NCBI GenBank assembly: GCA_965231045.1
Contig: OZ246406.1
Location: 514,208 to 578,207, forward strand
Direction of reading: 5' to 3'
Source: an uncultured Candidatus Saccharibacteria bacterium
GTDB lineage: Bacteria > Patescibacteriota > Saccharimonadia > Saccharimonadales > JAGQNJ01
DNA: 64,000 bases
Under the pieces are notes generated by a model. The model searched no databases. It saw only the letters and a program-made list of their open reading frames with translations, and was not told where the DNA came from. Both the position numbers and the translations under genes were made by a program. Position 1 is the first letter of the stretch. Each line of letters begins with the position of its first letter. This document shows, piece by piece, positions 1 to 25,258 of this stretch.

Positions 1-252
1 AAAAAAATAGGTGTAGATATTGAACTAGCCGATCCACATCGCGCATTTGTAAACGGTCCGAGCAAACTCAGGGCTGCAGATGTTGTCTGCCCTAATGGTA
101 TTCGACCAGCCGTCATGTTACTTATAGGCATGCTAGCCGCACCTGGAATATCAATGCTGCGAAATGTTTATACCATCAACCGTGGTTACGAAGACTTAGC
201 CGAGCGCCTGAACTCACTGGGCGCCAAAATCACCGTATTGCACGAACTTTAG
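1..252 (+). CDS. murA: UDP-N-acetylglucosamine 1-carboxyvinyltransferase, C-terminal fragment (5' end lies outside the window)
   Basis: Frame-1 translation ends ...PNGIRPAVMLLIGMLAAPGISMLRNVYTINRGYEDLAERLNSLGAKITVLHEL*. This matches the conserved MurA C-terminus (the ..DRGYE..(E/D)KL..LGA.. pattern). Stop TAG at 250-252. Confidence 0.8.
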   Translation, partial: KKIGVDIELADPHRAFVNGPSKLRAADVVCPNGIRPAVMLLIGMLAAPGISMLRNVYTINRGYEDLAERLNSLGAKITVLHEL

Positions 253-7753: not shown

Positions 7754-7863
7754 TGGTACCCCGGGCAGGATTCGACTCACCTCCAGCGAGCCCGAAACTT
7801 CGTGATTGAAAACAAGTTTTCATCAGAAGGTTTCCTTGCGAACTGCCACCGGCAGTTCTCACC
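7754..7863 (-). ncRNA. Candidate structured RNA, copy A: an 88-nt conserved module ending in an exact copy of the 3' terminal 22 nt (with CCA) of tRNA-Arg
   Basis: 7754-7775 is identical to 7942-7963. 7776-7863 aligns to 18142-18230 with 75 of 89 columns identical in my hand alignment. The hairpins are conserved and show compensatory changes. Strand is inferred from tRNA orientation and flanking terminators. Confidence 0.5.
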
Positions 7864-7905
7864 ACGACCTTTAAGGTTCCCGAATCGAACCTTCACACAC
7901 TACAA

Positions 7906-7941
7906 TCCTCCACACTTTGCCAAAAGGCAAACAATGGAGGA
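7906..7941 (-). terminator. Hairpin abutting the CCA end of tRNA-Arg
   Basis: TCCTCCA..TTTGCC-AAAA-GGCAAA..TGGAGGA (plus-strand reading). On the minus strand it is followed by TTGTAGTGTGTG, a weak T-tract. Confidence 0.4.
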
Positions 7942-8018
7942 TGGTACCCCGGGCAGGATTCGAACCCGCGACCTTGACGTTAGAACCGTCTTGCTCTATC
8001 CAGCTGAGCTACCGGGGC
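7942..8018 (-). tRNA. tRNA-Arg (anticodon TCT), CCA encoded
   Basis: 77-nt cloverleaf: GCCCCGG TA GCTC AGCTGGATA GAGC A AGACG GTTCTAA CGTCA AGGTC GCGGG TTCGAAT CCTGC CCGGGGT A CCA. Confidence 0.9.
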
Positions 8019-8093
8019 TGGTGCGGGATGGGGTAGTCGAAACCCCATCTCAAGTTTGGAAAACTTGCATATTAGCCGTTATACGAATCCCGC
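8019..8093 (-). tRNA. tRNA-Gly (anticodon TCC), CCA encoded, directly abutting tRNA-Arg
   Basis: 75-nt cloverleaf: GCGGGAT TC GTAT AACGGCTA ATAT G CAAGT TTTCCAA ACTTG AGAT GGGGT TTCGACT ACCCC ATCCCGC A CCA. Confidence 0.9.
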
Positions 8094-8153
8094 TTGAACA
8101 CTGGGGAGGCTAGCGTATTTGCCACGCTTGCGACACCCGCATTGAACTACTAG

Positions 8154-18007: not shown

Positions 18008-18090
18008 ATTTTTGTATTAATGTAATTAACTCAATAAACATAAGTATAGTTTATATACGGTAATAAATCACTCTAACTACTTTCTAAACC

Positions 18091-18113
18091 AAAAAAGACC
18101 CGAAAAGGGTCTT
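18091..18113 (-). terminator. Intrinsic terminator immediately after tRNA-linked element B
   Basis: The minus strand reads AAGACCC-TTTTC-GGGTCTT followed by a T run (TTTTTTGG). No plus-strand gene is nearby to use it. Confidence 0.6.
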
Positions 18114-18120
18114 CTTTGGT

Positions 18121-18230
18121 TGGTCGGGGTGAAAGGACTCGGTCACCTCCGGCGACCCCGAAACTTCGTCTTTGAAAACAAGTTTTCAAGAGAAGATTTC
18201 CTTGCGGATTGCCATCAGGCAATCCTCACC
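18121..18230 (-). ncRNA. Candidate structured RNA, copy B: an 89-nt conserved module ending in an exact copy of the 3' terminal 21 nt (with CCA) of tRNA-Pro
   Basis: 18121-18141 is identical to 18301-18321. 18142-18230 is homologous to 7776-7863. It is bracketed by a promoter-like TTGGTT-17-TTAGAT and an intrinsic terminator, both on the minus strand. Confidence 0.5.
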
Positions 18231-18237
18231 TTCGCCC

Positions 18238-18266
18238 ATCTAAGCTCGATACATCGCTCAAACCAA
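18238..18266 (-). promoter_or_regulatory. Putative promoter for element B (TTGGTT-17 nt-TTAGAT)
   Basis: -35 lies at 18261-18266 and -10 at 18238-18243 (minus-strand reading). The predicted start falls within a few nt of the first conserved base of the element (18230). Confidence 0.35.
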
Positions 18267-18268
18267 CT

Positions 18269-18291
18269 AAAAAACCGGAGACAAGCTCCGG
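18269..18291 (-). terminator. Intrinsic terminator of tRNA-Pro
   Basis: The minus strand reads CCGGAG-CTTGT-CTCCGG followed by TTTTTTAG, beginning about 10 nt after the tRNA CCA end. Confidence 0.65.
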
Positions 18292-18300
18292 CATTTTAGT

Positions 18301-18377
18301 TGGTCGGGGTGAAAGGACTCGAACCTTCGACCTCACGGTCCCAAACCGCGCGCGCTAGCCAACTGCGCCACACCCCG
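18301..18377 (-). tRNA. tRNA-Pro (anticodon TGG), CCA encoded
   Basis: 77-nt cloverleaf: CGGGGTG TG GCGC AGTTGGCTA GCGC G CGCGG TTTGGGA CCGTG AGGTC GAAGG TTCGAGT CCTTT CACCCCG A CCA. The C1-G72 pair is typical of bacterial tRNA-Pro. Confidence 0.9.
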
Positions 18378-22798: not shown

Positions 22799-25258
22799 TT
22801 ACTTTGTATTTTTTTGTATTACTGTTTTTCGGACTAATCCTAATGAACCAGCCAGCAATAGAAGTATTGCCAGCAAATAGAGTGGCTTTGTATCCTCACC
22901 GGTCGATGCCAAAGTAGAGCTACTCGTCCCAGAAGAAGTAGACGCGTTAGCAGTAGCTAGGCCAATTGGGTCAACTATTGTTCCGTTGGCAACCCCATCC
23001 TGATCTAAAGATCCCCCGTCCGTAATTGAGTAGGTTAGCTGTAGAGCGTGGTGACCGCTAGCTGATGTTTCTGTAAGCGTGTAACTTGGTATGGTGCTAT
23101 AGCCATGTGTAGTGCTGTTATATTTTCGTGGAGTAACCTGTGATGGCGTAAGATCAGTTACAAAAGTTAAGGATACTTGGTTAGTGGAACCATTGCTAAC
23201 TGAAAAACAGAAATTCACAACACCTAGGGGATAGCTGTAATTAGAGTCTTGGCTGGATAGGCTAGATGCCGACACAGAGTTTGCACAAGTTATATCAGTG
23301 CTATTTGGCACTGATAGAGTGACATTAGCTGGACTGCCTGTAACTGGAGCATTGTTGAAAGTATAGCTAGTTGTAGAAGGATAGGTGAATTTCTGGATCC
23401 TAGAGTTATTACTTTCATTTGTATATAACTGCCCAAACCTATCAATATGCACCCCATTTACAAAAAAGAATTGCCCATTTGCTCGGCCAAAAGAGCCCCA
23501 TTTAGTTATGAAATTACCACTGGAGTCGAATTTTTGAATACGGTTATTAGAGGAGTCAGCCACATATAGATTATTCAATACATCCATGGAAATACCACCG
23601 GCTCCATTAAATTGTCCGTCGCCAGATCCAAAAGAGCCCCATTTAGTTATGAAATTACCACTGGAGTCGAATTTTTGGATACGGTTATTGTCTGATACAT
23701 ATACGTTATTGTAGGAATCTATAGCCAACCCACCAATGGTTGAAAATTGGCCGTCGCCAGATCCAAAAGAGCCCCACTTAGTTATGAAATTACCACTAGA
23801 GTCGAATTTTTGGATACGATAGTTATAGTAATCAACAATGTAAATATTATTGCTAGAATCAGAAGCAACATAAGATGGTAAATTAAACTGGCCGTCGCCC
23901 GCACCAGCTGTTCCCCACTTAGTTATGAAATTACCGTTACTGTCGAATTTTTGGATACGGTTATTATTAGTTTCATTAACATAGATGTAATCGTTCGAGT
24001 CAACTGTGACACTATTTGGATAATCAAATTGGCCGTCGCCCGCACCAGTTGTTCCCCAATGCATAAGATGAACACCATTTTTGTCGAATTTTTGGATACG
24101 GTTATTATTACTATCTGGAGCATAAATATTGCCTAGTGAATCAGTCCCCAGTTCTGCGATACCACTTATCGAGTCTTCAGGCAAGGTAATAGTATTAAAC
24201 TGCGACTGGTAAGTTCCGGATGTGTTAAATTTTTGAACTCGCGAATTGCTTGGCGGCGCTTGATCAGCGACATATACATTATTAGAGCTATCAATAGCAA
24301 CACCAACTGCATAGGTAAATTGTCCGTTGCCTGTTCCGTATGAACCCCATTGTGACGTGTATACGCCACTATTGGTAAATTTCTGGATTCTTTTATTACC
24401 ACTTGAGCCAGAGTTACCGGTATCAGACACATACACATTATTTGAGCTGTCCAAAGCAATACCCGTAGGGTTAGTAAATTGTCCGTTACCAGTGCCTGAC
24501 GAGCCCCATTTAGTAATGTAGTTACCACTTGAGTCGAATTTTTGTACACGCTTATTTCCCTTCTCAGCAACATATATATTACCGGATGAATCGAAGGCAA
24601 TTCCCTGTGGATTATTAAACTGGCCATTGCCAGATCCAAAAGTTCCCCATTTAGTTATGAAATTACCACTGGAGTCGAATTTTTGGATACGGTTAGACGA
24701 ATCTGAAATATAAACATTCCCGCTAGAATCAACAGCAAGCCCTCTTGGGGTATTGAGTTGACCATCTGAAAAGCCATACGAACTCCACTCACCTAGAAAA
24801 GTGCCGGAATTTGAAAATACGCTTACTGGCGACTGAACATCATAGGCGTTACACCCATCAGCAATGTACACATTCCCGTTTGATTGATTGACAGCAATTG
24901 GAAATAGTGACGGAGGATTTCCTCCACAGGTAACATAGAAAAACCATTCCTTTACATATGCGCCACTTGAGTTATATTTAACAACTCGATTATTAGAGTA
25001 GTCCAAAACAAATACATTCCCACTGGCATCTGTAGCAATGCCTTGTGCAGTGCTTAGTGTCGATGGAATTGCCGCAAAACTCCCGGTAAAACTCCCGACT
25101 GTATTGGAGTAGCTTGGTACATCAGTTGACCCAGGAATTGAGGCATAAGCGTTTCTTATTGGAATCAAAGATAGAAGTAGAATAAATCCAAAACTAGCTA
25201 AACTGAAAAGCCAAGGTCTAAAATAACTAATCTTTTTGTTTCCCAAAACCTTATACAC
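22799..25258 (-). CDS. Large NHL-repeat (beta-propeller) surface protein with a LASTG cell-wall sorting signal
   Basis: 819 aa with a signal peptide and about 18-20 repeats of the ..NRIQKFDSSGNFITKWGS.G.G.GQF..P.G.A.DS.GN.YV.D.. type. The C-terminus is TLASTGEDTKPLYLLAILLLLAGSLGLVRKTVIQKNTK. Confidence 0.85.
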   Translation of the reverse strand: MYKVLGNKKISYFRPWLFSLASFGFILLLSLIPIRNAYASIPGSTDVPSYSNTVGSFTGSFAAIPSTLSTAQGIATDASGNVFVLDYSNNRVVKYNSSGAYVKEWFFYVTCGGNPPSLFPIAVNQSNGNVYIADGCNAYDVQSPVSVFSNSGTFLGEWSSYGFSDGQLNTPRGLAVDSSGNVYISDSSNRIQKFDSSGNFITKWGTFGSGNGQFNNPQGIAFDSSGNIYVAEKGNKRVQKFDSSGNYITKWGSSGTGNGQFTNPTGIALDSSNNVYVSDTGNSGSSGNKRIQKFTNSGVYTSQWGSYGTGNGQFTYAVGVAIDSSNNVYVADQAPPSNSRVQKFNTSGTYQSQFNTITLPEDSISGIAELGTDSLGNIYAPDSNNNRIQKFDKNGVHLMHWGTTGAGDGQFDYPNSVTVDSNDYIYVNETNNNRIQKFDSNGNFITKWGTAGAGDGQFNLPSYVASDSSNNIYIVDYYNYRIQKFDSSGNFITKWGSFGSGDGQFSTIGGLAIDSYNNVYVSDNNRIQKFDSSGNFITKWGSFGSGDGQFNGAGGISMDVLNNLYVADSSNNRIQKFDSSGNFITKWGSFGRANGQFFFVNGVHIDRFGQLYTNESNNSRIQKFTYPSTTSYTFNNAPVTGSPANVTLSVPNSTDITCANSVSASSLSSQDSNYSYPLGVVNFCFSVSNGSTNQVSLTFVTDLTPSQVTPRKYNSTTHGYSTIPSYTLTETSASGHHALQLTYSITDGGSLDQDGVANGTIVDPIGLATANASTSSGTSSSTLASTGEDTKPLYLLAILLLLAGSLGLVRKTVIQKNTK
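23487..24710 (-). repeat. Near-identical in-frame DNA repeats inside the NHL gene (periods 135-141 bp)
   Basis: The 62-nt stretch 23487-23548 recurs at 23628-23689 with one mismatch. Related copies begin near 23763, 23898 and 24638. Confidence 0.8.

Follow-up and report, generated by a model that had tools for sequence, protein, structure and literature searches.

A folded 87-nt module interrupts tRNA-gene fragments in Candidatus Saccharibacteria

An interrupted tRNA-Pro fragment

We analysed a 64,000-nt stretch of DNA (called the window here) from an uncultured Candidatus Saccharibacteria bacterium (assembly GCA_965231045.1, contig OZ246406.1, positions 514,208–578,207 of the forward strand). 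Downstream of its tRNA-Pro gene, the minus strand carries a module of approximately 87 nt (18142–18228), called module M here, followed by what looks like the 3′ end of a tRNA. This "cap" is a genuine fragment of tRNA-Pro: it reads tRNA positions 45–54, then M, then positions 56–76, with M lying in the T-loop between T54 and C56. A second copy of M follows a tRNA-Arg gene of the window (copy A; the tRNA-Pro copy is called copy B). M is an undescribed insertion family in Saccharibacteria, and no description of the element was found in the literature. We place at about even the chance that M is a small, non-coding, sense-strand mobile insertion, whose target is RGGT^(T)CG in loops of tRNA genes and which persists only in fragments of them that are redundant.

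The tRNA-Pro(TGG) gene (18301..18377, minus strand, as are all features of this locus) is intact and encodes its CCA. It was called by ARAGORN and by the Rfam tRNA model (63.6 bits), and its counterpart in the congeneric locus L144 shows 100% identity. Directly 3′ of the gene lies its native terminator (18266..18300), which the terminator scan called as a palindrome, ACTAAAA..TTTTAGT, with the stem at 18274–18292 followed by T6. The terminator of L144, an M-less ortholog, can be aligned with it, and the changes in the stem are compensatory. A 28-nt spacer follows (18238..18265), which together with 18266 includes the promoter-like TTGGTT (18261–18266) and TTAGAT (18238–18243). The next 10 nt, GGGCGAAGGT (18228..18237), are a copy of tRNA-Pro 45–54, made up of the variable loop, the 5′ strand of the T-stem (GAAGG) and T54. 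They are identical to tRNA-Pro at nine of ten bases and form five of five pairs with CCTTT (18131–18135). Module M of copy B then spans 18142..18227 (nhmmer E = 7.5e-23), and T18228 may be its first base. It folds into three hairpins (P2, 18203–18228; P3, 18160–18200; P4, 18141–18157) with a z-score of −3.1, and its unpaired junctions, UGA, GCAAG and GG, are conserved. The exact copy of tRNA-Pro C56–A76 (18121..18141) comes next and holds the remainder of the T-loop, the 3′ strand of the T-stem, the 3′ strand of the acceptor and ACCA. This 21-nt repeat is exact (18121–18141 = 18301–18321), and its C18141 also closes P4. A second terminator-like palindrome, ACCAAAGAAGACCC-TTTTC-GGGTCTTTTTTGGT (18088..18120), pairs with the preceding ACCA; it was identified from the sequence and by the terminator scan of the opposite strand, and its hairpin and T-run cover 18091–18113.

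An initial annotation of this locus had listed tRNA-Pro, a first terminator, a conserved module of 89 nt, an exact 21-nt tail and a second terminator, and all of these are present. The module is about 87 nt long instead, and its 5′ side is tRNA-derived as well (GGGCGAAGGT). The tRNA-like end, described there as mimicry, is a real fragment of the neighbouring tRNA with M in its T-loop. Neither ARAGORN nor Rfam RF00005 called a tRNA in the M unit, and the approximately 160-nt interval between the tRNA-Pro and the tail repeats contains no integrase-type open reading frame (ORF).

In this lineage, tRNA terminators are long palindromes, and their outer arms take in the ACCA of the tRNA itself and the TGGT that follows (18088–18120, 18266–18300 and many other loci), which allows the CCA end to pair with the trailer. 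When 601 nt around copy B were searched, Rfam family SMAD5-AS1_3, a region of a mammalian long non-coding RNA that has no modelled structure, matched 18145–18281 of the minus strand (30.9 bits, E = 7.7e-5). We judged this match to be due to chance because it is absent from eight other M loci.

A conserved three-hairpin fold

A degenerate pattern scan of a species-representative genome collection identified at least 118 loci. Roughly 115 Saccharibacteria loci were fetched, and a profile (nhmmer) built from the pattern matches found at least 144 copies of M in them. The statistics below use 128 pattern-matched copies, 116 aligned copies and 54 loci (or their spacers) of the class 1 layout described below. 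Absence from related genomes, which the initial annotation had named as a point that would speak against its element, is thus contradicted by more than 140 copies. Among the matches listed, nearly all are metagenome-assembled genomes of Candidatus Saccharibacteria or Saccharimonadales, and among them M is found almost only in Candidatus Saccharibacteria. The proteins of the window also have their best matches in Saccharimonadales loci. A metagenome scan with a 3′-end pattern gave two true matches out of 20; this pattern was too strict, as variants of the P4 loop are common.

In the window, the profile matches only copies A and B. The two are 88% identical across 72 ungapped nt, and four differences between them are compensatory pair changes. 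A 25-nt core pattern matches the window twice, at the same two copies, compared to 0.00 matches expected by chance. Given the exact tails, the compensatory identity of the two copies and a core pattern beyond chance, we conclude that these sequence features are real.

In the consensus of the 116 copies, P2 has 10 pairs, P3 has 17 pairs with bulges, and P4 has seven pairs and a triloop; conserved UGA, GCAAG and GG link the hairpins. The proportion of paired cells is 97.7% (81.6% in shuffled controls), and 578 cells show double changes (145 ± 9 in shuffled controls). The covariation score is 0.448, compared to at most 0.081 when partners were slid. Five of the seven P4 pairs covary. The basal part of P3 was fixed by the search pattern, and it covaries in the more diverged copies found by the profile. 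G.U pairs are frequent, with one conserved wobble in 100 of the 116 copies, and few A.C pairs are seen; this identifies the tRNA-sense strand as the one under selection. The claim of a conserved, structured minus-strand element linked to a tRNA 3′ end is borne out.

At gathering thresholds, only tRNA and rRNA families of Rfam 15 pass. Permissive searches (E ≤ 10 for copy B and E ≤ 5 for eight other loci) returned no intron or ribozyme family. Known ribozymes were also compared by eye and rejected: the motifs of hammerhead, hepatitis delta virus (HDV)-like and hairpin ribozymes and the boundary motifs of group II/III introns do not fit the helices supported by covariation.

Other module families, which the M profile does not see, occupy the same position in L015 (4500–4699), L120, L049, L075, L098 and L114. 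Their layout is tRNA, terminator, inverted T-loop, module and exact tRNA 3′ tail. Some of them have a P2-like hairpin at their start, a sign that there may be a wider superfamily.

M is placed in loops of tRNA fragments

On either side of M stands sequence from the neighbouring tRNA, and the two flanks are contiguous in that tRNA. The 5′ flank ends in RGGT in 107 of the 116 copies (G at −2 in 115), and the 3′ flank begins (T)CRARTCC, which places the site in the T-loop between T54 and T55 or C56. Most copies sit at T-loop 54/55; others are found in the anticodon loop (fragments of tRNA-Pro(GGG)), in the D loop (fragments of tRNA-Gly and tRNA-Glu) and in the P4 of M itself. In all 110 copies for which a tRNA lies within 300 nt, M and this tRNA have the same orientation, and an intact tRNA always adjoins the interrupted fragment. 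The five bases before M form 4.32 of 5 pairs with the T-stem 3′ strand after it (3.57 ± 0.10 in controls). The module is closed by the T-stem of the tRNA itself, whose two strands M separates. A guide-RNA reading, in which M would be a scaffold with a 3′ guide matching the tRNA, was dropped because the 5′ flank is also derived from the tRNA and is contiguous with the 3′ flank.

Two layouts were identified. Class 1, to which both window copies belong, comprises 55 of the 128 pattern-matched copies (tail match ≥10 nt). It consists of the intact tRNA, usually a terminator, a spacer of 62–97 nt, tRNA positions of approximately 44–54, M, and positions 55/56–76. The full geometry, seen in about 50 class 1 loci, is tRNA[1–76], terminator, a degenerate inverted copy of 76..44, forward 44..54, M and 55..76; in about 50 loci the forward flank corresponds to tRNA positions of approximately 44–55. 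The tail is an exact copy of 20–22 nt in 28 of the 54 loci. The inverted copy stays below 90% in every case, with an average of 51% (background, 32%), and in the spacer of copy B it is not recognisable (0.18 of bases matched). Class 2 consists of the 5′ part of a tRNA (1–54, 1–37 or 1–21), M, a short hairpin, a −10 box and the intact tRNA, where the short hairpin consists of the few tRNA bases that come next, together with an inverted repeat of these. Both classes surround a single tRNA-Glu in L107.

M was removed in silico from the 128 copies with 352 boundary combinations per copy. A tRNA call spanning the junction was obtained in five copies only, and the junctions were inconsistent. Since removal almost never yields a complete tRNA, M is not an intron of a working gene, and an intron in a complete tRNA was ruled out. 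Hairpin inserts of 16–35 nt that are unrelated to M were also observed, in the anticodon loop of a pseudo-tRNA-Gln (L037, L124) and in the P2 of M (L071, L133).

Origin of the fragments

The repeat often runs past the CCA into the terminator, and whole units are arranged in tandem in L063, L121 and L093. The duplication therefore took place at the DNA level and did not copy a mature tRNA. An RNA-mediated (cDNA) origin of the fragments is weakened by the same passage beyond the CCA.

The congeneric locus L144 allows a direct comparison with copy B. Its ABC1 kinase is 89% identical, its tRNA-Pro identical, its leader approximately 93% identical and its terminator orthologous. It has neither M nor the 21-nt tail, and two unrelated ORFs stand in their place. 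In our reading, the sequence 3′ of each of the two terminators of copy B resembles the single post-terminator sequence of L144. We infer that copy B may have arisen by a tandem duplication of tRNA-Pro from approximately position 44 to 76 together with the terminator, with M in the distal copy. A Campbell- or CTX-phage-like integration, which would have supplied the tRNA 3′ end and the first terminator, is unsupported for copy B because the terminator is orthologous in L144 and the inverted arm is never well preserved. L055 is orthologous to the tRNA-Pro locus but more distant (ABC1 52% identical), and at the corresponding place it has a degenerate M-like relic. For copy A, a search with its YkuD homolog gave no close ortholog of the locus; only L146, the syntenic tRNA-Gly/tRNA-Arg/YkuD locus of a more distant relative, was usable, and it is without copy A.

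Transcription signals and the minihelix proposal

The initial annotation had proposed that copy B is a separately promoted RNA of 110–140 nt with an acceptor/T-arm minihelix ending in ACCA, which acts as a decoy or substrate. Both flanking terminators are real. The promoter TTGGTT-17-TTAGAT (18266–18238) matches the −35 hexamer at three of six positions and is below the threshold of the scan. Nor is it a trait of the family: in the 54 homologous spacers, the best sigma-70-like score is 6.19, compared to 6.59 ± 0.19 in shuffles. A hairpin and T-run lie between tRNA and M in 38 of the 54 class 1 loci and after the tail in 20 of 33. Class 1 units thus look transcriptionally insulated, though they may yield a read-through RNA; copy A, with no terminator after tRNA-Arg, is an exception. 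Class 2 fragments sit behind a tRNA-promoter-like sequence with a −10 box and are therefore probably transcribed. Taken together, these predicted signals argue against a family of independently promoted genes.

The minihelix (CGGGGT/ACCCCG plus GGAGG/CCTTT) can be drawn with six of six and five of five pairs only in copy B, because the acceptor of tRNA-Pro happens to read CGGGGTG. Over 34 copies with intact tails, it forms 2.88 of 6 and 2.71 of 5 pairs, compared to 3.07 and 2.78 in permuted controls. The pairing is thus at chance level in the 33 other copies, and the minihelix is refuted as a property of the family. The bases concerned (CGGGGT, GGAGG) make up both strands of P4 and its loop, and the covariation supports this hairpin. 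As originally worded, the proposal is very improbable.

Evidence for mobility

One M can lie inside another, always at TTTCGGG^ in P4, a site that resembles the T-loop target. In three genomes, excision of the inner M in silico restores a full-length outer copy, with scores rising from 64.6 to 80.4, from 56.2 to 67.8 and from 49.7 to 63.7 bits. Copies are more alike within a genome (0.82) than between genomes (0.75). Among same-genome pairs at different tRNAs, the three most similar are 91–93% identical; one of these (93%) joins a copy in an anticodon loop with one in a T-loop. The M-less loci of relatives (L144 for copy B, L146 for copy A) point to mobility as well, as do truncated, diverged and degraded copies and the other small inserts that pseudo-tRNA copies carry.

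The preferred mechanism would run as follows. M would move in folded, single-stranded form, as DNA or as RNA, and would insert 3′ of RGGT in exposed loops of tRNA genes. Insertion into the sole functional copy of a tRNA would be lethal, so that survivors would lie in redundant tRNA fragments. These fragments would come from local duplication, in tandem for copy B and as forward–inverted–forward arrangements at many other loci, and would begin at about tRNA position 44, often with the terminator included. The 21-nt tail would be the 3′ arm of the duplicated fragment and not a designed mimic. The mobilising enzyme would presumably be encoded elsewhere than in M.

We hold a bolder form of this proposal to be possible but doubtful. 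In it, M units would be a new bacterial class of mobile element, a protein-free folded RNA or single-stranded DNA (ssDNA) of approximately 87 nt that homes to tRNA loops of the candidate phyla radiation (CPR) with the tRNA gene rebuilt. As such it would parallel, in bacteria, the transposing tRNA introns of archaea and would involve a new insertion chemistry or a new host enzyme.

Several points weigh against mobility. A search of the sequence beside M, local and not genome-wide, revealed no transposase, integrase, reverse transcriptase or intron core. Ten ORFs of the window and six ORFs of other loci include no Y1 (HUH) transposase, again without a genome-wide protein census; the only recombinase among the scanned ORFs is a large serine recombinase in L099. 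Pattern scans of viral collections, which gave no match and on which we rejected a phage or viral origin, count here too. The conserved unpaired junction bases recall a functional, folded RNA more than the ends of a transposon. A duplication that is recent and near-perfect was not observed, given inverted copies below 90% beside tails that are perfect in 28 of 54 loci, and such perfect tails beside decayed inverted copies suggest constraint or gene conversion on the tail. Between the likely orthologs L027 and L040, M differs by approximately 7% and the spacer by approximately 17%, with one of the M changes compensatory in our reading; slower change in M could be compatible with an RNA that is useful to the host. 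Insert-free partial tRNA copies are rare, which hints that duplication is coupled to insertion, and the two may be one event. Overall, the sequence comparisons point to constraint or gene conversion acting on M and the tail in place, and its source could be continued recombination with the adjacent tRNA or an RNA function.

A possible companion RNA for each tRNA

The main rival takes up the last of these possibilities and is a broader form of the initial proposal: M units would be companion RNAs that are useful to the host, one for each tRNA. In class 1, such an RNA would be a three-hairpin domain closed by the T-stem and ending in the acceptor 3′ strand and CCA; in class 2, it would start with the 5′ three-quarters of the tRNA. 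It might serve in tRNA processing or stability, as a decoy for toxins or enzymes that read tRNA ends, or as a regulator. We rate this reading as rather unlikely. The strong covariation and the conserved junction bases are in its favor, as are tails that stay perfect in 28 of 54 loci while the adjacent inverted copy decays, and the slower change of M relative to the spacer in the likely orthologs. Class 2 copies keep the tRNA 5′ part behind a −10 box and are probably transcribed, and copy A has no terminator between tRNA-Arg and M. In the better-preserved units, the inverted copy pairs with the tail to give an acceptor/T-like helix that ends in ACCA. However, this closing helix is not maintained, and the minihelix of the initial annotation is not conserved either. 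There is no conserved promoter, and 38 of the 54 class 1 loci have a terminator before M. Close relatives with an identical tRNA lack the unit, only two of the four tRNA loci in the window are occupied, and many copies are truncated, degenerate, nested or tandem.

Possible scars of integrative elements

A further alternative is that the units are scars of integrative elements that target tRNA genes (tyrosine or serine recombinase islands, or phages) and have lost their cargo. The 21-nt repeat would be a displaced att fragment, and M would be the arm of the element next to attP. The junctions in the T and anticodon loops are compatible with this, as Williams in 2002 reportedly named these loops as the usual places of integrase crossover. 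Some loci have 1–4 kb between the tRNA and the M-tail, and L099 carries a large serine recombinase. The module, however, abuts many different tRNAs, with each tRNA's own sequence on both sides of M, so that one attP cannot carry them all. The tRNA-Pro terminator is native, as seen from its M-less ortholog in L144, which means that no element replaced the tRNA 3′ end. M is also found in D loops and inside M, and the units of approximately 180 nt contain no integrase. The initial annotation had itself raised an att core of a deleted island as an alternative; given the many tRNAs, the tRNA sequence on both sides, the anticodon- and D-loop sites and the nested copies, the repeat is not a simple att core. 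The repeat does match the classic signature of an island (Islander, PMC4383910), in which the tRNA is regenerated and its 3′ end is directly repeated from the T-loop onward. In sum, we consider the island-scar explanation improbable.

The 4.2-kb island of L099 (1987–6100) lies between tRNA-Gln and its M unit. Its serine recombinase has Resolvase, Recombinase and Zn-ribbon domains, and perfect inverted repeats of 165 bp flank it. Another perfect inverted-repeat pair, of 120 bp, encloses two small ORFs, and one of these matches HEPN weakly. Because the island is positioned between the tRNA and a standard M unit, it looks like a later insertion.

Comparison with known systems

Close parallels exist in archaea. 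In Thermoproteales, non-canonical tRNA introns transpose, and how tRNA genes are disrupted has been modelled for Caldiarchaeum (PMC3293823; review PMC4090602). Like M, archaeal tRNA introns are short, structured, related inserts, which occur in several loops (D, anticodon, variable and T) of many tRNA genes. Fragments of tRNAs are likewise scattered by intact genes there, and an origin from mobile elements has been proposed. Unlike M, the archaeal introns reside within complete functional genes, have a bulge-helix-bulge and are cut out by the splicing endonuclease. M, a bacterial module, occurs in no complete tRNA, and a bulge-helix-bulge pairing of its ends is not obvious: compared by eye, without a formal bulge-helix-bulge search, UGAG.. 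and ..GUGAC show no mutual complementarity.

The miniatures of IS200/IS605 elements (PATEs) and REP/BIME sequences are, like M, small, non-coding and strand-specific, with end hairpins kept by covariation. IS200/IS605 miniatures insert 3′ of a short fixed motif without target-site duplication, as the nested M copies do; M follows RGGT in 107 of 116 copies and comes out cleanly from the nested copies in silico. In contrast to these elements, no Y1 transposase was identified for M in the scanned ORFs. The central hairpin of M is long and conserved, the junction bases are likewise conserved, the hairpins are terminal and not subterminal, M inserts almost only in tRNA-derived loops, and one or two target bases are often replaced.

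Islands and phages in tRNA genes share with M units an intact tRNA followed by a direct repeat of its 3′ end from the T-loop, sometimes with cargo genes in between. The M units differ in being approximately 160 nt long and free of an integrase, in a module common to many tRNAs, in tRNA sequence on both sides and in a native terminator. Of the features used by Islander, M units have the regenerated tRNA and the displaced fragment (an exact 3′ fragment of 21 or 22 nt), and they lack an integrase and an element-specific attP between the repeats.

The tRNA group I introns of Patescibacteria are full, self-splicing ribozymes at anticodon-loop position 35/36 of functional genes, most of them without a homing endonuclease gene (PMC13011429, the publication that came nearest to the present element). 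They share with M the phylum, the tRNA host genes and the preference for loops. M differs from them in its 87 nt, in having no Rfam intron match and in its place in non-functional fragments. Viral tRNA-like structures (TLS), retroplasmid 3′ ends and mascRNA resemble the M unit, which also ends in the T-arm 3′ strand, the acceptor 3′ strand and ACCA. Unlike in these RNAs, the tRNA part of the M unit is a literal fragment of a tRNA gene and not a product of convergent mimicry, and its pairing partner decays. The core sites of integron attC (RYYYAAC/GTTRRRY) are matched by GTTCGAA/TTCGAAC at only five of seven positions when compared by eye, and most M units have no cassette gene.

Saccharibacteria have genomes of roughly 1 Mb with single-copy tRNA genes, yet half of the tRNA loci in the window carry M units, as do most tRNA loci within the loci that were selected for M. 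If M is mobile, it would be an element that homes to tRNA loops without a recognisable enzyme or ribozyme core. It would then offer a tractable bacterial model of how tRNA genes gain inserts, split and duplicate, a question so far addressed mainly in archaea. If M is a functional RNA instead, a matched companion RNA for each tRNA would be unprecedented. In practice, M units break assemblies, complicate annotation through the pseudo-tRNA fragments they create, and can serve as a lineage marker of Saccharibacteria. Independent assemblies of the strain (L001–L005) terminate in or beside an M unit or its tRNA, as is typical of repeats, and the contig of L146, which is M-less, terminates inside tRNA-Gly; contig breaks therefore fall at tRNA or M-unit loci.

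One M unit was observed in the spacer of an rRNA operon (L130, 2866–8000). The order there is 16S, tRNA-Ile, tRNA-Ala, a terminator-like hairpin, M and tail, approximately 1.1 kb, and 23S.

The copy A locus and other features of the window

Copy A is preceded by tRNA-Gly(TCC) (8019–8093) and tRNA-Arg(TCT) (7942–8018), both called by ARAGORN and Rfam on the minus strand, which carries all features of this locus. Directly 3′ of tRNA-Arg lies a hairpin, TCCTCCA..TGGAGGA (7906..7941), that has no T-run, and the scan called no terminator between tRNA-Arg and copy A. The spacer that follows (7862..7905) holds a degenerate tRNA-derived palindrome, AAGGTTC..GAACCTT (7872–7893), and ends in AGGTCGTGG (7862–7870), which corresponds to tRNA-Arg 45–53. 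Module M of copy A spans 7776..7861 (nhmmer E = 1.6e-25, confirmed by its alignment with copy B), and an exact 22-nt copy of tRNA-Arg T55–A76 follows at 7754..7775.

Hairpins of the type TCCTCC...GGAGGATTGT, located right after tRNA CCA ends and without a T-run, were noted in the window (7906–7941), in L015 (4640–4699) and in L080. They may be a second conserved trailer element.

Upstream of tRNA-Gly(TCC), a 10-nt pseudo 5′ end of a tRNA-Gly, GCGGGTGTCG, is present at 8131–8140 (minus strand). The leader GTTCAA(T) is doubled (8141–8147 and 8094–8099, minus strand), with an unrelated insert of approximately 31 nt in between. The arrangement at 8094–8147 looks like a small class 2-like remnant without M.

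Elsewhere in the window, an ORF of 819 amino acids (22799–25258, minus strand) contains seven or eight tandem units of approximately 141 nt (23406–24718), which are 60–80% identical and encode repeats of approximately 47 amino acids.

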